Shown here piece by piece: positions 12,163-49,637 of a stretch of DNA of 49,637 bases. A program made the translations under genes and the position numbers. Numbering within the stretch: position 1 is the stretch's first letter; every line of letters begins with the position of its first letter. This DNA comes from Actinomycetes bacterium (GTDB taxonomy: Bacteria > Actinomycetota > Acidimicrobiia > Spongiisociales > SHLN01). Location: positions 1 to 49,637 of the forward strand of contig JAHEJY010000004.1 in assembly GCA_024638625.1 (NCBI GenBank), read 5' to 3'. The notes beneath the pieces were generated by a model. The model saw only the letters and a program-made list of their open reading frames with translations, was not told the DNA's origin and did not search any database.

Positions 12163-12740
12163 CAGGCCTCCTCGGTTGTAGCGGTTTCATCGGACGCCTC
12201 CCCGGCAACCGGTTCCTGGTCGGGCTCAGCAGCCACAGGCTCAGCAGCCACAGGCTCTCCAGCCATGGGCTCTCCAGCCACAGGCTCTTGCGTCCCGGGT
12301 TGTTCCGGTGCGGGTTCTGTTGCCGCGGATTCTTCGGGCGCAGATTCTTGGGGCGCAGATTCTTCGGGTGCGGGCGTCTCGGCCACCGGCTCTTCCGCGA
12401 CGGGTTCTGGCTCTGGAGCCGTCCCGGAGGGCCGACCTTTGGATTCGGGCGGGCTCGCATCGACAACGTGAATATCGCCCCTTGCCATCGCGAATCGGGT
12501 CCAGGCGCCGGATATTTCGAGCAGTTTTCGCACCGCTGCGGTTGGTTGGGCGCCTACGCCCAGCCAATAGTTGGCCCGGTCGTTGTCAATCTCGACGACG
12601 GAGGGCTCGTGATGCGGGTCGTAACGACCGATCAGCTCGATGAATCGCCCGTCCCGGGGTGAACGCGAGTCGGCGGCAACCACGCGGTAGGTCGGATGCT
12701 TCTTTTTGCCCATCCGCATGAGCCGGAGCTTTACAGCCAT
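12162..12740 (-). CDS. rpsP: 30S ribosomal protein S16 with acidic repetitive C-terminal tail
   Basis: [31 protein letters not shown]...GAQPT. Confidence 0.97.
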
Positions 12741-33088: not shown

Positions 33089-33295
33089 ATGTCCCACCGT
33101 TGCGAAATCTGCGACAAAGGTCCGCGCTACGGCAAAAAGGTCAGCTTTTCCCATAAGCGCTCAAACCGGCGGTGGCTGCCCAACATCCAACGGGTTCGGA
33201 TCAAAGACGGCACCAATTCCCGCAAGGCCCGCGTCTGCACGTCGTGCATCAAAGCAGGCAAGATCGAGAAGGTCGGGAACCCTTCGGGTTCCTAA
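33089..33295 (+). CDS. rpmB: 50S ribosomal protein L28
   Basis: CEICDK...SHKRSNRRWLPNIQ...VCTSCIK; last six codons and stop lie in a repeat. Confidence 0.96.
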   Translation: MSHRCEICDKGPRYGKKVSFSHKRSNRRWLPNIQRVRIKDGTNSRKARVCTSCIKAGKIEKVGNPSGS

Positions 33296-33575
33296 GGAGT
33301 TTGCGGGAACCCTTCGGATTCGGGAACCCTTCGGGTTCCTTGGAGTTTGCGGGAACCCTTCGGGTTCCTAAGGAGTTTGCTCCGCAAACTCCACTTGACG
33401 CAAAGGGGCTAGAACACCCTGCGGATGCCATTCAGAAAACTCGGTAGAAAACTGGATCCTTCATTCACGCAAAGGGGCTTGAACACTCTGCGCATGCCAT
33501 CAGAAAAAGCAGATACCATTCAGAAAACTGGGCCCCACATTCACGCAAAGGGGCTAGAACACCCTGCGGATGCCA
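33274..33575 (+). repeat. Cluster of a palindromic REP/MITE-like element: 4 x CGGGAACCCTTCGG, one full 81-bp element (33350-33430), 3 x 33-bp tail
   Basis: CGGGAACCCTTCGG at 33274, 33304, 33321, 33350; ACGCAAAGGGGCT(A/T)GAACAC(C/T)CTGCG(G/C)ATGCCA at 33398, 33467, 33543. Confidence 0.9.
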
Positions 33576-33610
33576 CCCGATCAATACTGCGATGCCAGGA
33601 AGCGATACTG

Positions 33611-42054: not shown

Positions 42055-42199
42055 CTTACGTTTCATGGTTCTTACGTTTCATGTTGTTTCTCGGCTGGTT
42101 CGTTCACGACTGGTTCGTTCACGACTGGTTCGTTCACGACTGGTTCGTTCACGACTGGTTCGTTCATGACTGGTTCGTTCATGACTGGTTCGTTCACGG
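42055..42199. repeat. Tandem repeats: 2 x 16-bp-period CTTACGTTTCATG, then 7 x 15-bp CTGGTTCGTTCA(C/T)GA
   Basis: 15-bp units at 42095, 42110 ... 42185; no spacers. Confidence 0.95.
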
Positions 42200-42440
42200 C
42201 TGTTGCCTAGGTTCATCTATACGCACTTTACGCCATCAGAGTGACACGTTTGTAATTCTCCCGCAAGAGGCCGTCGGCGCACGCCCGGTACGCTGCCAAA
42301 ACCACCCGTCGTCTCGTTCCCATCTGGTGGGAACATGATGGAAGCGATATGACGCCACATGTGCGAAAAGTGGCTCTAGATTGCCGAAAATCAGACCCGC
42401 GGGCGTGAGAAATGGGATCAAGAACTCGAAACCAGATGAG

Positions 42441-42928: not shown

Positions 42929-44737
42929 ATGACATCTGAGACCGAATGCCAGATCGCCATCATCGGTGCCAACCGCGCCGGGATCGGTGTGGCCACCGAC
43001 GCCTACGAGGCCGGTATCGACAAAATCGCCATCTTCAGCAAGGATCCCCTCGAATTTCGACTTCCGAACGCGCCGCAGGGGGACACCACACTGATGGGAA
43101 CGCCCGACGAGTACATCGGGTCGCCCGTTACACGCCTGGTTCAGCACGACGACCACGTTGAGGTTCACACCGATGATCTGGTGGTAAAAGCCCAGGTTGC
43201 CGTCGTCGCCGCCAGGGCCGGACTGGAATCGGCCCCGCCCCCCTACGAGATCCCGGCGGCCGTTGCTGCCCGGGTACATATGTCCATGCCGGACGATATC
43301 GACATGGATGCCGACATACTCATCATCGGAGTCGGCGAGACGGCAGCTGAATACTGTGAAGATCTCGTCGACTCCGGATACACGTCCGTGGTCCTCAGCC
43401 TGCCGTCAACAGCGTTCGATCGCCTGGCTCCGGCAACACGCGATCGGCTGAGAGAGGTCGAGTCCCGCCTTCAGGCAACCGTGCTCTGGCACGCACATCC
43501 AACCGGGGTCATCGACGCCGGCGGCGTTCCGATGGTCACCTTTGACGACCGCCGAACGCCTGACCTGGTGTTCGACCACGTCATCTACTCGCTGGGTCCG
43601 GGCCAGAAGGCGGGCAGGCTGGAGCGACTGGGAATTGACCTGCAAAGCGATGCAGTCGAGAACCCGTCACTGGTCGTGTTGAGCCAGCTCGATGATGATG
43701 ACACCCCGCATGCCGAGCCGGTCATTTACGTCTCGCCCGGTCACGCCTGGAGGCTCATACACGACACGCATTTTCCCGAGCTGGCGCCTGCACACGATCT
43801 CGAGGCGCGACCTCCTCTCCTCCGATATCAGCTCGCCGAACACCTCCGCCGGGACGCTTACAACGCCACCATCACCTCGTTCGACCGCCGGCATGGGGAT
43901 CTCTGGGTTATCCGAGTCAAGCCCGACACCGGTGGGGTAGAGCATTTTCCCGGCCAGTACACGACTCTTGCCCTCGGATATTGGGAACCACGAATCGACG
44001 GCCTGGATGAACACCTCGAAGAGGCCAAGTTCGAGAAACTCGTGCGCCGTTCGTATTCGATCTCGTATCCGATCCTCGAGGATGATCGATTGGTTCGACC
44101 CGAGGAGATCGATGGTCTGGAGTTCTACATCGTTCTCGTCCGGGCCGAAGGAATGGATCATCTGCCGGAACTGACCCCTCGCCTCGCGCTCAAGCGAGAA
44201 GGCGACCGGATTTTCATGGGTACCAAGGTCACCGGGCGCTACACACTCAAACCGGTCACGGATCCCGAGATGGACGTCATCTTGCTGTCGACAGGAACCG
44301 GCGAGGCGCCGCATAACAACATGATCGCCCAGCTCCTCCGTGATGGGCACACCGGCAAGATCATTTCTGCCTGCACGGTTCGCTACAACGAGGACCTCGC
44401 CTATCTCCATACCCACCGTCGCCTGGAAGAGCTGTATTCCAACTACACGTATCTGCCACTTACCACTCGCGAGCCCGAAACCATCAACAACAAGGTCTAC
44501 ATCCAGGACCTGATCACGAAAGGGCTGCTGTCCGAAGCACTCGGCCACGAACCGACTCCCGAACGTTCACAGTTCTTCCTATGCGGCAACCCGCTGATGA
44601 TCGGGCTCCCCGCTGTCGACGGCGACACCGTAGCCTTCCCCGAATCGATTGGCGTGTGTCAGATTCTGGTCGAGCGGGGCTTCACAATCGCTCACCGCGG
44701 CATCGATGGAAACGTTCACTACGAGGAGTACTGGTAA
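42929..44737 (+). CDS. Ferredoxin--NADP+ reductase fused to an N-terminal degenerate pyridine-nucleotide-disulfide oxidoreductase-like domain
   Basis: C-half has PGQY, VRRSYSI, STGTGEAP, LCGNPLMI, HYEEYW; N-half has IAIIGANRAGI and ILIIGVGETAAE Rossmann-like motifs. Confidence 0.85.
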   Translation: MTSETECQIAIIGANRAGIGVATDAYEAGIDKIAIFSKDPLEFRLPNAPQGDTTLMGTPDEYIGSPVTRLVQHDDHVEVHTDDLVVKAQVAVVAARAGLESAPPPYEIPAAVAARVHMSMPDDIDMDADILIIGVGETAAEYCEDLVDSGYTSVVLSLPSTAFDRLAPATRDRLREVESRLQATVLWHAHPTGVIDAGGVPMVTFDDRRTPDLVFDHVIYSLGPGQKAGRLERLGIDLQSDAVENPSLVVLSQLDDDDTPHAEPVIYVSPGHAWRLIHDTHFPELAPAHDLEARPPLLRYQLAEHLRRDAYNATITSFDRRHGDLWVIRVKPDTGGVEHFPGQYTTLALGYWEPRIDGLDEHLEEAKFEKLVRRSYSISYPILEDDRLVRPEEIDGLEFYIVLVRAEGMDHLPELTPRLALKREGDRIFMGTKVTGRYTLKPVTDPEMDVILLSTGTGEAPHNNMIAQLLRDGHTGKIISACTVRYNEDLAYLHTHRRLEELYSNYTYLPLTTREPETINNKVYIQDLITKGLLSEALGHEPTPERSQFFLCGNPLMIGLPAVDGDTVAFPESIGVCQILVERGFTIAHRGIDGNVHYEEYW

Positions 44738-44739
44738 CC

Positions 44740-45102
44740 ATGGATATTCGTCTAAGCCTGGTCGCGCTCGACTGTCCCGATCCTCTGGCACTCGCCGGGT
44801 TCTATCGCGATCTGACCGGCTGGCCCGTCGGTCATGTGAGCGACGACTGGGTCGAACTGGATGCAGGCGACGGCGTGACCATCGCATGCCAAAAAGTAGA
44901 GGACTTCTCACCGCCGGTGTGGCCCGGGTCCCAGCACCCCCAACAGCTCCACCTGGATTTCGATGTTGACGACCTGGATGAGGGCGAAGCCCATGTACTC
45001 AAAGTTGGGGCCATCAAGACTGATGAACAACCCAAGCCTCAATCCTGGCGTGTGTTTTTGGATCCCGCCGGCCACCCCTTCTGTCTCGTCCTAGCCGATT
45101 AG
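44740..45102 (+). CDS. VOC/glyoxalase family protein
   Basis: LDCPDPLALAGFY, QLHLDF, DPAGHPFCL. Confidence 0.92.
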   Translation: MDIRLSLVALDCPDPLALAGFYRDLTGWPVGHVSDDWVELDAGDGVTIACQKVEDFSPPVWPGSQHPQQLHLDFDVDDLDEGEAHVLKVGAIKTDEQPKPQSWRVFLDPAGHPFCLVLAD

Positions 45103-45128
45103 ACGTGTTATTCAAGGCATGTTATTCA

Positions 45129-45207
45129 TGGCATGCGCAGAGTCTTAGAGCCCCTTTGCGTCAAGTGGAGTTGCGCAGCAACTCCCAAGGAACCCGCAGG
45201 GTTCCCG
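45129..45207 (-). repeat. Second, inverted copy of the ~80-bp double-hairpin element at 33350-33430
   Basis: Minus strand CGGGAACCCTGCGGGTTCCTTGGGAGTTGCTGCGCAACTCCACTTGACGCAAAGGGGCTCTAAGACTCTGCGCATGCCA. Confidence 0.9.
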
Positions 45208-45228
45208 CCGCCGACAACCAACACGCGC

Positions 45229-45283
45229 AAAAACCCCGGGCTGACAGTCATCTCCGAAGAGATGTCCGCCCTCTCGGGGTTCT
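45229..45283 (-). terminator. Intrinsic terminator-like hairpin with cUUCGg loop, homologous to 42786-42834
   Basis: Minus strand AACCCCGAGAGGGCGGACATCTC-TTCG-GAGATGACTGTCAGCCCGGGGTTTTT. Confidence 0.75.
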
Positions 45284-45960
45284 TGCCGGCCCTGCCCACT
45301 CCGGTCCCAACGCTTCGCAGTGGTCCGGTCGTTCACCCGAAGGTGAGCGTCCGGTACTCCGAAGAGCCGGCTCCGCAGCTTTCTGCAGCGCCCTGGCTCC
45401 GTCACCGTTCCTGACTCAACAGGCACCGATTGCTGCCGGTCTCTCGACCAGCCACTCCCGGTTCGGCTCGAGTGCCAAACCCAAAGTCACGTATTCTCGT
45501 CGGTCCTTCCCCGAAGGGTCGGGCCGTCTCGAAGTTTGCAACTCCGGTACCGAAGCAACGTCCGTCCACTGCATCCTGGCTGCGTCGTGCAACGTTTCCG
45601 TCGCTACGCGGCCCTTCAACAACAGCCTTCTGAGGCTCCGGTTGCCTGGAATGGTCCCAAGTCTTGCGACCCGCTTCCATGCCGGGCCGGGAACTTCCTC
45701 GGCTATTCCCGCACCTCCCGATTTTTCCCCTTGCGGTTCAAATTCGTTCGGTAAAAGAGGCCCTGGAAGTGCCCTCGCCTTCCAAAGTCCTGCAGATCCC
45801 TCCGAGTCACCCGTTAAGACAAGCTCTTTGGTCCCTGCCTGACCGGTCATCCGTTGTCGCCTTCCGTTTTACCGGCGTGACACGTCACCGAAGTGGCATG
45901 TCACAAAAGCGACGGGACGACCAAAGGTCGGCCGCTGTCCGGGATCACTCCCGATCAGCG
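45229..45960 (-). ncRNA. Candidate ~730-nt large structured non-coding RNA (RNA-L), family unknown
   Basis: Own promoter and terminator; six CTTCGG and several GNRA-capped stems on the minus strand; nested long-range pairings. Confidence 0.75.
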
Positions 45961-45965
45961 TCAGA

Positions 45966-46040
45966 ACAATACGCCGACCTAACCCCCCGGTCAAACGTCA
46001 CGGCTGTTTAGTTTTCGCGCTCTACAACCTTGTTTCGCGA
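45966..46040 (-). promoter_or_regulatory. Sigma70-type promoter TTGACC-N17-TATTGT with upstream CGCGAAA direct repeats
   Basis: -35 at 45994-45989, -10 at 45971-45966; tCGCGAAA starting 46040 and gCGCGAAA starting 46020. Confidence 0.72.
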
Positions 46041-46096
46041 CCGCCCGGAGTGCCTTTTTATCACTCTTTTCGAATGATAGGTCGGCTCGGAAATCC

Positions 46097-46118
46097 TGTC
46101 ATATCGCACGGCTAGCTT
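46097..46118 (+). promoter_or_regulatory. Possible PafBC/RecA-NDp-like promoter (TGTCAT-N10-TAGCTT) of leaderless adnAB
   Basis: Resembles mycobacterial TGTCGG-N10-TA-N3-T; the -10 ends 7 nt before the ATG at 46126. Confidence 0.4.
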
Positions 46119-46125
46119 CACAACC

Positions 46126-49050
46126 ATGGCGACCATAGAAGTGCATCCCGGGCGCTGGGATGATGCGATTGCCGATACCGACGGACCGCAGATCGTTGTA
46201 GGAGGGCCTGGAACGGGCAAGACCGAATTCCTCGTGAGGCGCGCCTCCTACCTGATCGAGCGTGGCACGGATCCATCGGCAATCGCAATACTCGGCTTCT
46301 CGCGGCGAGGGGCGGCTGGAATTCGTGATCGAATCGAGGCAAGGCTCGATGAGACCACCGCAGGCATTTCAGCATCTACGTATCACTCGCTGGCGATGAG
46401 GATCCTCGAATCGCATGGCAACTCGGCAGGCGAACCACCGGCGTTGCTCACTGCGCCTGAGCAAGTTGCGTTCGTCGCTGATCTTCTAGCCGCAGAAGAT
46501 CCTGCGAACTGGCCTGCCGCCTATCGGCCGATTCTGCAATCGTCGAGATTCGCCCAGGAGGTCACCGACTTCTTGCTGCGCTGCGCCGAGCAGAGAATCG
46601 GGCCAACCGAAGTCGCGGCATTCGAACGCGATGACTGGAAAGGGCTTCCCGGCTTCTTCGAGAACTATCTCACAAGCTTGGAAGAGGCCGGACGCCTTGA
46701 CTACGGATCGCTCATCGTCCAGGCGGTTGACCTTCTCGACGATCCGATCGTGGCGGAGGCGCTGTCGGAGCAGTTTCAATACGTGCTGGCGGACGAATAC
46801 CAGGACACATCCCATGTTCAGGCTCGCTTCCTCCAGGCACTGGCACGGCATCACCGGAATCTCACCGCAGCTGCCGACCCCTATCAATCCGTCTACAGCT
46901 TTCGGGGAACGGATCTCGCGAACGTTGCCCGGTTTCCCGAGGAGTTCAGAGACGCCGACGGTCGGCCGGCGCGGCGGATCGTGTTGCCGACCTCATTCCG
47001 CGTGCCGGGCGAAATCCTGCGTGCTGCCGAATCGTTGACGACGAACCTGAACCTGCCGGGGGCAGCAGGTCCCGTCGAAGGGGTCGCGAGCGCGGGCCGC
47101 GTCGACGCCCACCGGTTCGACCAGGCGACCGAGGAAGCCGAGTGGATAGCTCGAGAAATCGAGCGAACCCACGTCGTTGATGGCACCGCGTATCAGGACA
47201 TCGCCGTGTTTGTGAGAACAAAGAAGCGTTTCATGTCCGAGTTGTCCCGAGCGCTCGAGCGCCGGGGCATCCCACACAATCGGCCGGATTCCCGCCTCGT
47301 CGACCATCCCGCCGTCCGGATATTGTTCGATCTCGTCACGGCCGCAACCGCCACGGGTGCGGATCAGGATCGGGCCCTTCGCCGGCTCGCACTGGGACCA
47401 CTTCTCGGACTTCCGCCAGGCGAGTTTTACCGGATTTCCCACGAGCAAGGCACCCGCGGTTGGATCAACGTGCTCGGTGAGCACAGCCCTGGCGGAGCGG
47501 CCATCGCAGGATTGATCTCGAACCCGGCGTGGGCGACGACCATGTCGGCAGCAGAAGGTCTCTGGCACATGTGGGAATCCCTACCCCAGGTCGTTGACGT
47601 CGCCAACGATCCGCAGAGACAGAACGAGCGTTTGGGTTGGTCCTCCATCAGCCAGGTACTGGGTCGCCAGTTCGAACGTGACGAAACCGTGACGCTGCAG
47701 CAATACCTCGGCTGGACAGAGAAAGACGATTTCGAGGCCGACCCTTTGCTTCGTCATCAATCGAGTCGCGTTCCAGAGGTGACCCTGACCTCCCTTCATC
47801 AAGCCAAGGGTCTCGAATTCGATACCGTCTTCATTGCAGATGCCGTCGAGGGAGTGTTCCCCGATTTGAGAGCGCGAGAATCGCTTCTGGGCTCGCGACA
47901 TCTGTCCTCATCGCTGCCTGCCGATGTTGTCCAATACCGCCGGTTCCGACTTCAGGAAGAAGCCCGGCTGGCATACACAGCCATGACCCGCGCTTCCCGG
48001 CGTGTGATCTGGACAGCGACCTCCGCAGGTGACGACTTCCGGCCCGGGGGCCCCAGCCGGTTTCTCGATCGGCTCGGCATCCCGGTTGATCGTCCGCCAG
48101 ACAGGATGCTGCCGGTTTCGGTGCTCGAAGGAGAGGCCTGGTTGCGGAGAATCGCAGCCGACCCCGGGGCGGGGATTGCTGCGAGATCGGCGGCCATCGA
48201 ACATTTGGCCAGTGGCCAGGCATGGGGCGGTCGGGATCCCCTTCGCATTGCCGGAGTTCTGCGTCGTGGCTCGAATAGGGGGATCACTACCCCAGGCAAG
48301 CTTCGCCTCTCTCCCAGCCAGGCCGACAGCTATGCCCGCTGCCCCCGTCAGTACGCCCTGGAAAGGCGTCTGCGATTCTCGGATGGTCCGACGGTACACC
48401 TCGCCTTGGGAAACGTCGTGCATCAGGTGATTCATCAGACCGATGTACATCACCCTGATCCCGTCGTCGAAGATGCGCTGACAACCCTGGATGATCGTTG
48501 GGACCCGGCCGACTTTGGCGGACCGCCCTGGGCTGACGCCTGGTATCTGCGCGCCCGTCATATGCTCGAAAACCTCTACAAACATCGCAACCGGAATCAT
48601 GAGGTGGTTGAGTCCGAGTACGACGTCACGCTGGATGCCGGTGGAGTGCAGTGGAGTGGTTCAGTCGATCGTATCGAACGTCGCGGTTCGCAACTCTGGA
48701 TCGTCGATTTCAAGACGTCGAAAACGCCCGCCCGGGCAGACGAAGCCGCCCGATCGATCCAGCTTGGCTTCTACGTTCTGGCCACGCAACAAGACCCGGG
48801 TTTGTCGGCGTTGGGAGAAATCACGGGAGCCGAGCTCTGGTATCCAGCCGTCCCGCAGAAGAAGCAACCCTTTGCGACCCGCCCGTTCAACATGTCGTTT
48901 CTTCCCCAGGTTCGCCAGACGATGTCTGAGCTTGCAGCCGATGTCGAGGCGGAGCGCTGGGATCCGGTGCCGGGAGAGGCCTGTCGCCACTGCACCGTGC
49001 GATCGTCGTGCCCCGCGGTTCCGGAAGGCCAGGAGGCCTATGCCGGATGA
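46126..49050 (+). CDS. adnA: AdnA-like UvrD-type helicase plus RecB-type nuclease
   Basis: GGPGTGKT, ADEYQD, DPYQSVYSFRG, HQAKGLEF, YTAMTRA; C-terminal VDRI...VDFKT and CRHC...CP. Confidence 0.88.
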   Translation: MATIEVHPGRWDDAIADTDGPQIVVGGPGTGKTEFLVRRASYLIERGTDPSAIAILGFSRRGAAGIRDRIEARLDETTAGISASTYHSLAMRILESHGNSAGEPPALLTAPEQVAFVADLLAAEDPANWPAAYRPILQSSRFAQEVTDFLLRCAEQRIGPTEVAAFERDDWKGLPGFFENYLTSLEEAGRLDYGSLIVQAVDLLDDPIVAEALSEQFQYVLADEYQDTSHVQARFLQALARHHRNLTAAADPYQSVYSFRGTDLANVARFPEEFRDADGRPARRIVLPTSFRVPGEILRAAESLTTNLNLPGAAGPVEGVASAGRVDAHRFDQATEEAEWIAREIERTHVVDGTAYQDIAVFVRTKKRFMSELSRALERRGIPHNRPDSRLVDHPAVRILFDLVTAATATGADQDRALRRLALGPLLGLPPGEFYRISHEQGTRGWINVLGEHSPGGAAIAGLISNPAWATTMSAAEGLWHMWESLPQVVDVANDPQRQNERLGWSSISQVLGRQFERDETVTLQQYLGWTEKDDFEADPLLRHQSSRVPEVTLTSLHQAKGLEFDTVFIADAVEGVFPDLRARESLLGSRHLSSSLPADVVQYRRFRLQEEARLAYTAMTRASRRVIWTATSAGDDFRPGGPSRFLDRLGIPVDRPPDRMLPVSVLEGEAWLRRIAADPGAGIAARSAAIEHLASGQAWGGRDPLRIAGVLRRGSNRGITTPGKLRLSPSQADSYARCPRQYALERRLRFSDGPTVHLALGNVVHQVIHQTDVHHPDPVVEDALTTLDDRWDPADFGGPPWADAWYLRARHMLENLYKHRNRNHEVVESEYDVTLDAGGVQWSGSVDRIERRGSQLWIVDFKTSKTPARADEAARSIQLGFYVLATQQDPGLSALGEITGAELWYPAVPQKKQPFATRPFNMSFLPQVRQTMSELAADVEAERWDPVPGEACRHCTVRSSCPAVPEGQEAYAG

Positions 49051-49062
49051 ACGGATGAGAAG

Positions 49063-49637
49063 ATGAACATCGACCCAACGCCCGAACAACTCGCCATCAT
49101 GGAATACGACGCCGGAAAACCTCTTCGGGTAGCCGCGGGAGCCGGGACCGGCAAGACTTCGACGATCGCGTTGCGGCTCGAGACACTCATCTCGCAAGGC
49201 GCGGTAGATCCGGAGACCACACTCGGTATCACCTTCACGGTCAAGGCGGCCGAAGAACTCCAGCATCGTTTGATGACACAACTCCACGAGCTGGCCAAGG
49301 ATGGGCGCATGCCACTCGTGACCACCTACCACGGTTTCGCGTTCTCGATCGTCCAGGAGTTCGGCGGATATGTGGGACTCGAACAGCAAACCCGTGTGAT
49401 CACCCCGGGATTCGGCCGACAGCTCCTGCTCGAGACCTTGAGCGAGGGCCAGTACGAGCACCTCGACTTGACACATGTTCGGGGGCGGATTGAAGAGCTG
49501 GTCGGGCTGGGGTCCGAGCTCTCCAATCACCTCTATCGACCACAGGATCTGTTCGCGGAGGTCGATGCGAACGACGACATCGGAGCCCGGCGCCGCGAGC
49601 TGGCGGCAGTTCTGGCCCGGTACGATGAGAAGAAGCG
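49063..49637 (+). CDS. adnB: AdnB-like ATP-dependent helicase (partial; runs off the right end of the window)
   Basis: Manual translation MNIDPTPEQLAI...AGAGTGKTST...GITFTVKAAEEL...TTYHGF; tandem with adnA. Confidence 0.88.
   Translation, partial: MNIDPTPEQLAIMEYDAGKPLRVAAGAGTGKTSTIALRLETLISQGAVDPETTLGITFTVKAAEELQHRLMTQLHELAKDGRMPLVTTYHGFAFSIVQEFGGYVGLEQQTRVITPGFGRQLLLETLSEGQYEHLDLTHVRGRIEELVGLGSELSNHLYRPQDLFAEVDANDDIGARRRELAAVLARYDEKK

Follow-up and report, generated by a model that had tools for sequence, protein, structure and literature searches.

A large structured RNA, probably of a new family, in a genus of marine-sediment Acidimicrobiia

Locus and transcription unit

We analysed a 49,637-nucleotide (nt) stretch of an actinobacterial genome (assembly GCA_024638625.1, contig JAHEJY010000004.1; class Acidimicrobiia), hereafter the window, in which a gap of ~1 kb between two plus-strand genes houses the gene of a large RNA on the minus strand. 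The product is very probably a structured non-coding RNA of a family not described before. A first-pass annotation made from the sequence alone had proposed an RNA of ~730 nt at 45229-45960 with its own promoter and a U-tailed terminator, and the signals located here lead to nearly identical coordinates. The predicted RNA body spans 45960-45229 on the minus strand (~731 nt), its ends being deduced from promoter and terminator and unmapped. Homologues from the three other species of the genus (genomes G001, G002 and G003; the genome of the window is G000) measure 681 nt in G001 and 729 and 727 nt in the other two. No same-strand gene lies between the promoter and the terminator, and the RNA strand is G-rich (35.8% G, 25.8% C).

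A promoter scan placed the proposed promoter TTGACC-17-TATTGT, which is of the sigma-70/sigmaA type, at 45994..45966 (minus strand). TTGAC of the -35 box (TTGACC, 45989-45994) and the complete -10 box (TATTGT, 45966-45971) are invariant in the four species, and transcription is predicted to start at about 45961-45958. An A-rich block at 46004-46017 on the same strand abuts the -35 box upstream and is kept in all four species; it may act as an UP element. At the other end, a 60-nt hairpin followed by U5 at 45233-45229 could be read both in the sequence and in the folds. A simple terminator scan missed this terminator because its stem is long and interrupted. When the four species are aligned, identity jumps at the A-rich block and -35 box, persists through the RNA body and ends at GGGGTTTTTGCGCG a few bases past the U-tract, while the flanking regions diverge and cannot be aligned between species. 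Conservation bounded by a promoter and a terminator in this way is the footprint of a transcription unit and not that of a protein gene or a repeat.

Past the terminator lies the gene of a glyoxalase-like protein (plus strand, ending at 45102). On the promoter side, the divergent neighbour (46126-49050, plus strand) encodes a 974-residue UvrD-type helicase with a C-terminal PD-(D/E)XK nuclease, AddB/AdnA-like by domain content. Pfam searches on the immediate neighbours returned an oxidoreductase, the glyoxalase-like protein and the helicase-nuclease. A second UvrD-like open reading frame (ORF) begins at 49063. Further, the intergenic region between helicase and RNA carries a second promoter-like site, ATGACA-17-TATCAT (10 of 12 positions), at 46074-46102 on the minus strand, ~110 nt upstream of the RNA promoter.

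Predicted fold and its conservation between species

The RNA strand is predicted to fold with a minimum free energy (MFE) of -354 kcal/mol compared with -296.7±7.2 kcal/mol for 20 shuffles (z score -7.9). An even stronger signal was obtained for the 681-nt homologue of G001, the most distant one (z score -10.1), against z scores of -4.7 for the opposite strand (-285 kcal/mol) and -1.4 for a coding control of 737 nt. A consensus structure calculated on the alignment of the four sequences contains 231 base pairs, with 94.8% of its 893 cells paired, and takes the form of a chain of nine domains (D1 to D9, all on the minus strand).

The chain starts with D1 (45934-45959), a hairpin whose GNRA loop reads GUGA, GAGA or GAAA depending on the species, with a compensatory G-C to A-U change in its stem. 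D2 (45776-45933) is a multibranch domain that holds the invariant 18-mer TTGTCTTAACGGGTGACT and an arm of variable length, which forms a three-way junction with a UUCG hairpin in three species and a single hairpin in G001. It is followed by D3 (45689-45774), a long irregular hairpin with the cap CC-GCAA-GG. Together with the 3' half of D2, D3 makes up the best conserved core of the RNA (45686-45846), in which mean column identity reaches 91%. D4 (45644-45687) is a GCAA-capped hairpin showing compensatory change in four pairs. D5 (45549-45642), a long hairpin, differs in length by 14 nt between species and ends in a covarying apical stem with a GNRA loop (GAAA or GCAA). In the UUCG-capped hairpin D6 (45481-45547), the inner stem of G001 has another sequence with the shape unchanged. 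D7 (45394-45480) is a three-way junction combining a GAGA-capped arm, which in G001 is 26 nt longer and GCAA-capped, with the invariant hairpin CCUG-UUNAGU-CAGG. D8 (45288-45392), a long hairpin under a UUCG cap, contains the conserved internal loop CUGCAGAAAGC and has lost 21 nt in G001. Finally, D9 (45227-45286) is the 60-nt UUCG-capped hairpin that precedes U5 and serves as the predicted intrinsic terminator; it is 95-98% identical in all species and its helix of 24 pairs is 100% paired across the alignment.

When the domains of the window's RNA are folded one by one, 12 terminal loops result, nine of which are tetraloops of the UUCG or GNRA type. The six minus-strand CTTCGG sites listed by the first-pass annotation (45254, 45337, 45359, 45511, 45550 and 45888) are all exact, and the one-sidedness it reported holds, with zero sites on the plus strand between 42807 and 49123. 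Its expected count of 0.25 was too low, since the 74 sites of the window (both strands) correspond to ~0.55 per 737 nt per strand. Six is the top count of any 737-nt segment on either strand, the next best being 4. Four of the six sites (45888, 45511, 45337 and 45254) are C(UUCG)G hairpin caps, in line with the claim that most of them cap stems, and the sites at 45550 and 45359 fall within predicted helices instead of loops. The four GNRA-capped stems that had been quoted are likewise present, with GUGA in D1, GCAA in D4, GAAA in D5 and GAGA in D7. A proposed nested pairing survived in part: the inner helix GTCGCTTT/GAAGGCGAC occurs in the MFE fold (as CCCC/GGGG in two species), whereas the outer helix CTTTGGTC/GACCAAAG is absent from both the MFE and the consensus structure, its GGUC pairing instead as GGUCGUCC/GGAUGACC.

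Each of the nine domains was also folded singly for every species, which yielded the same topology and mostly the same loop type. D2 and D4 to D8 are only 47-58% identical between G000 and G001, yet they refold alike. The stems beneath GCAA, GAAA, GAGA and UUCG loops vary in sequence between species, and peripheral arms vary in length. With so few sequences available, this refolding of individual domains is more telling than the covariation count. Two-sided changes were found in 18 of the 231 pairs, compared with 7.7±2.0 in 500 shuffles blind to the relatedness of the sequences, none of which reached 18, and with 3-5 when pairing partners were slid by one to three columns. The corresponding covariation score is 0.149, against 0.111±0.006 for the shuffles and 0.030-0.065 for the slid partners. 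As G001 is poorly aligned in D2, D5, D7 and D8, the count is conservative in these domains. Overall, relatives of the RNA exist and their differences preserve the predicted helices, which favours the reading of the first-pass annotation.

As a side observation, the ability of GGAGGG at 45803-45798 (3' portion of D2) to pair with CUCUUU at 45759-45754 (D3) is shared by the four species, G001 having exchanged one G-U pair for U-G. This might reflect a tertiary or an alternative helix; we regard it as a weak lead and do not claim it. A scan for further long-range helices likewise gave weak leads only, among them a 5-bp pairing that is all G-U in G001, and none of these is claimed.

Distribution and comparison with known RNA families

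BLAST searches over 61 genomes were positive for four, namely the window's own and all three of the other species of the genus, and for none of the 57 others. Each of the four holders carries one copy. Over the RNA, identity to G000 is 84% for G003, 83% for G002 and 71% for G001; taken together, the homologues span 70-84%. We built a covariance model, R1, from the conserved core (45686-45846). Within the family, R1 matched four of 14 genomes, genus members only. In a sample of the order it matched five of 151 genomes, four of them from the genus and a fifth that is not credible, and in a sample of the class one of 151, the window's own. The fifth order match (genome G094, E 0.017) lies in coding-like DNA, where nhmmer with the full alignment finds nothing. 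An exact 18-mer occurs at six loci in species-representative genomes, three in metagenome-assembled genomes of the genus and three by chance. Of the chance loci, two had no R1 score and one aligned over just 23 nt, at the seed. An exact 17-mer was found at 22 loci in metagenome contigs of the Joint Genome Institute, and none of the 22 passed R1 at E<=1. In viral contigs, three conserved motifs gave 3, 1 and 8 loci, all seed-length chance matches, and nhmmer on 37 motif loci aligned at most 40 nt, at the seed itself. A BLAST search of 50,697 phage and 72,556 plasmid records returned no match. On present data, the large RNA is confined to one genus of marine-sediment Acidimicrobiia.

The gene order around the RNA bears on whether it is a cis-acting or antisense element of a neighbour, i.e. 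a long leader, a riboswitch-like element or a divergent transcript controlling the promoter of the helicase-nuclease gene. The helicase-nuclease is the divergent neighbour in all four species, its start lying ~130 nt from the -35 box of the RNA, and a same-strand kup gene lies ~250 nt past the terminator in G001, both of which would suit such a role. However, synteny within one genus is expected from descent alone. The RNA does not overlap the helicase gene, and helicase orthologues (~50% identity) occur in all ten other genomes of the family, where different ORFs, and no homologue of the RNA, occupy the upstream region. What follows the terminator varies by lineage (glyoxalase-like on the opposite strand in G000, an alpha/beta hydrolase in G002, kup in G001), so the RNA leads into no conserved gene, and the conserved block closes with a strong hairpin and a U5 terminator. 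We therefore give a cis-acting role only a slim chance.

The first-pass annotation had seen no signature of a group I or II intron, RNase P, tmRNA or rRNA, and Rfam 15 (4227 families) agreed, with no match at the gathering threshold over the whole window and none at E<=10 over 44900-46300. Five noise matches, at 16-24 bits against cut-offs of 39-80, were all that the three homologous loci produced. A literature search, mostly at the level of titles and abstracts, found no description of this RNA, and the name MISL, cited in the first-pass annotation, did not come up in it. The OLE model (RF01071) matched none of the four genomes at E<=1, in a search that had no positive control as the control genomes also lack OLE, and the ROOL model (RF03087) matched none at E<=1, likewise without a positive control. 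For GOLLD there was no match in the Rfam-wide scans, and no dedicated search was made. A GOLLD profile is stated to be part of Rfam (PMC12286853).

In case of the common housekeeping RNAs, all matches fall on other contigs. RNase P RNA (RF00010) was found in all four genomes at 277-296 bits, the RNA of the signal recognition particle (SRP RNA, RF00169) in all four, and transfer-messenger RNA (tmRNA, RF00023) above its cut-off in three of the four. With ordinary copies of these RNAs elsewhere, the large RNA is not a divergent version of one of the three. It resembles all three in that they are stable, abundant and tetraloop-rich and have their own promoters, and differs in that none of their models matches the locus. 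No tRNA was found in the 49.6-kb window. The 6S RNA model (RF00013) had no match anywhere in the four genomes of the genus. Since this model also fails in a Corynebacterium control, the missing match says little and may reflect blindness of the model for actinobacteria.

The nearest model for the mode of action is OLE RNA, an RNA of ~600 nt from Bacillota that is described as the scaffold of a ribonucleoprotein particle with a biochemical function that is not known (PMC12286853). Both are large, stand-alone structured non-coding RNAs with many conserved stems and tetraloops. The RNA described here differs in its host (Acidimicrobiia instead of Bacillota), is ~120 nt longer and shows no match in sequence or structure. 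Moreover, OLE is accompanied by its partners oapA, oapB and oapC, whereas the neighbours here are the helicase-nuclease, the glyoxalase-like protein and the oxidoreductase; oap genes were not searched genome-wide. ROOL and GOLLD share the size class (the ROOL model has 574 positions) and an ornate architecture of several domains. Many GOLLD members exceed 800 nt, and by cryo-electron microscopy (cryo-EM) both ROOL and GOLLD are described as RNA-only homo-oligomers or cages held by kissing loops and A-minor contacts (PMC12286853). By analogy, a similar assembly of this RNA is possible. ROOL and GOLLD are carried by phages or prophages, frequently next to tRNA islands, in contrast to the present RNA, which sits among chromosomal genes of the housekeeping type. 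The raiA motif RNA, described as a structured RNA of ~200 nt that is very abundant in cells of Bacillota and Actinomycetota, is much smaller; it had no match in the Rfam-wide scans, in which the presence of a raiA model is unverified.

These comparisons allow an alternative to be weighed in which the RNA belongs to a known class but has diverged too far for the Rfam models to recognize it; group II introns lacking an ORF, RNA polymerase-binding RNAs of the 6S/Ms1 type and the phage-borne GOLLD/ROOL group are candidates. The size ranges of ORF-less group II introns and of ROOL take in the length of this RNA, a function of the 6S type could be vacant with RF00013 found in none of the four genomes, and horizontal acquisition would agree with the restriction to one genus. 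The length also falls within the range given for GOLLD (PMC12286853). On the other hand, no family matches at E<=10, the OLE and ROOL models are silent in all four genomes, and the RNA is a single-copy, stand-alone unit outside any gene, with no reverse transcriptase or phage protein among its immediate neighbours, no tRNA in the window and no BLAST match in the phage and plasmid records. For the intron in particular, its own promoter and terminator between genes and the lack of a reverse-transcriptase domain next to it are out of character. Group II introns have 5' GUGYG and 3' AY ends, which are absent from the predicted ends of this RNA. 6S RNA is a rod with a large central bubble mimicking an open promoter, whereas this RNA forms nine successive, partly branched domains; as an argument the missing 6S match is in turn weakened by the Corynebacterium control. 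A diverged known class is thus, in our estimate, improbable.

RNA libraries, coding potential and proposed role

An index of public sequencing runs returned 19 runs from ten studies that contain the RNA sequence, six of which are recorded as RNA libraries. In four metatranscriptome runs from four studies, examined over 44700-46500, all contigs lie within 45363-45946. The flanks of the RNA within this 1801-base stretch (529 bases below, 540 bases above) received none, which shows a lack of cover there and is not proof of absence. Several diverged relatives occur in one run of 120 million letters, where their word depth ranges from 34 to 398 and loose ends coincide with the variable arms. The transcript anticipated by the first-pass annotation is supported insofar as contigs from four studies map to the RNA body only, whereas its assignment to the minus strand is beyond what contigs can show. 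RNase P RNA, tmRNA and SRP RNA are typical non-ribosomal RNAs of metatranscriptomes, and the contigs found here fit an abundant, stable RNA.

The 144-residue internal ORF named in the first-pass annotation is present (45416..45850, minus strand), and its conservation at the codon level had been put forward as an observation that would speak against a non-coding RNA. No such conservation was seen. In three comparisons, substitutions at codon positions 1/2/3 numbered 25/21/27, 25/27/31 and 41/42/40, and they are spread evenly by position modulo 3 over the whole RNA as well. The orthologous frames have no start codon, contain in-frame stops and are shifted by insertions or deletions of 1, 2, 4, 14, 17 and 26 nt. 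ORF extents on both strands differ from species to species, no small ORF is common to all four, and Pfam assigned no family to the 144-residue ORF. Judged by these comparisons, the large RNA is non-coding. That the locus is a protein gene or a decayed relic of one with incidental structure is close to negligible in our view: although both the 144-residue ORF and a 245-residue ORF (45105..45842, plus strand) exist, and a gene caller could well accept the latter in G+C-rich DNA, the flat substitution pattern, missing starts, stops, non-triplet indels, variable ORF extents and empty Pfam search oppose a coding gene, and a relic would neither preserve helices by compensatory change nor turn up alone in RNA libraries.

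The preferred interpretation, held with considerable confidence, is a genuine gene for a structured non-coding RNA of a new family, and the suggestion of the first-pass annotation that it might represent a new class of large bacterial non-coding RNA stands, with the class so far comprising four members from one genus. Several points weigh against it. Only four sequences are available, which amount to effectively three lineages since G002 and G003 are 93% identical. Of the two covariation controls, the shuffles ignore how closely the sequences are related, and the slid partners are biased in favour of the structure because it was derived from the same four sequences. The best conserved core is nearly free of covariation, and the structure of this part is therefore only predicted. 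The absence of homologues outside one genus is odd for an RNA so elaborate and affects both its origin and its generality, and the metagenome search rested on a single exact 17-mer. Contigs from RNA libraries show neither strand, ends nor level, DNA carry-over is possible in such libraries, and the 3' ~130 nt (45229-45362) are without contig cover. Finally, no neighbour gene, ligand motif or partner offers a functional clue, and a scaffold mechanism is proposed by analogy alone.

As to function, we infer that the large RNA is most likely a stable architectural RNA. Its organization as a stand-alone unit with a strong-looking promoter, a protective 3' hairpin, a high density of tetraloops and an invariant core within a variable periphery points to a structural RNA acting in trans, and not to a base-pairing regulator or a leader. 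In the proposed mechanism, the RNA's own promoter and terminator would give a discrete transcript of ~730 nt that folds into nine domains, is long-lived and abundant, and has a structural role in trans. A compact tertiary fold may then be built by its GNRA loops and conserved internal loops and would provide the scaffold for a ribonucleoprotein, or for an assembly of RNA alone, in the manner of OLE, ROOL and GOLLD. Provided that the RNA indeed founds a new family, we put such a scaffold or assembly role at slightly under an even chance; a ribozyme appears unlikely, and a regulator or sponge equally so. A bolder proposal, possible but doubtful, is that we are dealing with the founding member of a class of giant ornate RNAs, the first from Acidimicrobiia and marine sediments, chromosomal and highly expressed in nature, which, like OLE, ROOL and GOLLD, would form a defined higher-order particle, made of RNA alone or together with proteins, with an activity outside known RNA functions. 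Its contact or active sites would then be the nearly invariant 18-nt element of D2 around a self-complementary UUAA and the invariant 60-nt 3' hairpin.

To our knowledge, bacterial non-coding RNAs of more than 500 nt with an elaborate conserved structure are very few. Those known fall into two groups, agents of core cellular chemistry (rRNA, RNase P, group II introns) and puzzles (OLE, GOLLD, ROOL), the latter recently shown to form RNA-only assemblies without precedent (PMC12286853). At the family level, no relative of the RNA could be detected in Rfam 15, the sequence collections or the literature covered by our searches; in kind, it is comparable to OLE, GOLLD and ROOL. One more class would extend the repertoire of large RNA architectures, here from an uncultured actinobacterial lineage, and with a gene that is chromosomal and not phage-borne and a sequence that is visible in environmental RNA libraries. 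For now, the generality of the RNA is limited by its few known holders, four species of a single genus. With a clear promoter and terminator and an easily transcribed 731-nt sequence, the RNA lends itself to structure probing and cryo-EM.

Separate from the conserved RNA, the window carries a dispersed short repeat consisting of the hairpin GGGAACCC-TTCG-GGTTCC and, after it, a conserved ~45-nt block containing TTGACG. Tandem copies stand after a gene ending near 33270 (33274-33435 and 33446-33580, plus strand), and another (45136-45208, minus strand) lies ~20 nt downstream of the U-tract of the large RNA. With 26 BLAST matches in the window's own genome, the repeat resembles an intergenic element of the repetitive extragenic palindromic (REP) or miniature inverted-repeat transposable element (MITE) kind, or a reused terminator/promoter module. 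Tandem repeats were also noted at 690-933 (units of 14-16 nt, at least 10 copies), 42066-42217 (15 nt, 7 copies) and 12223-12297 (15 nt, 4 copies).

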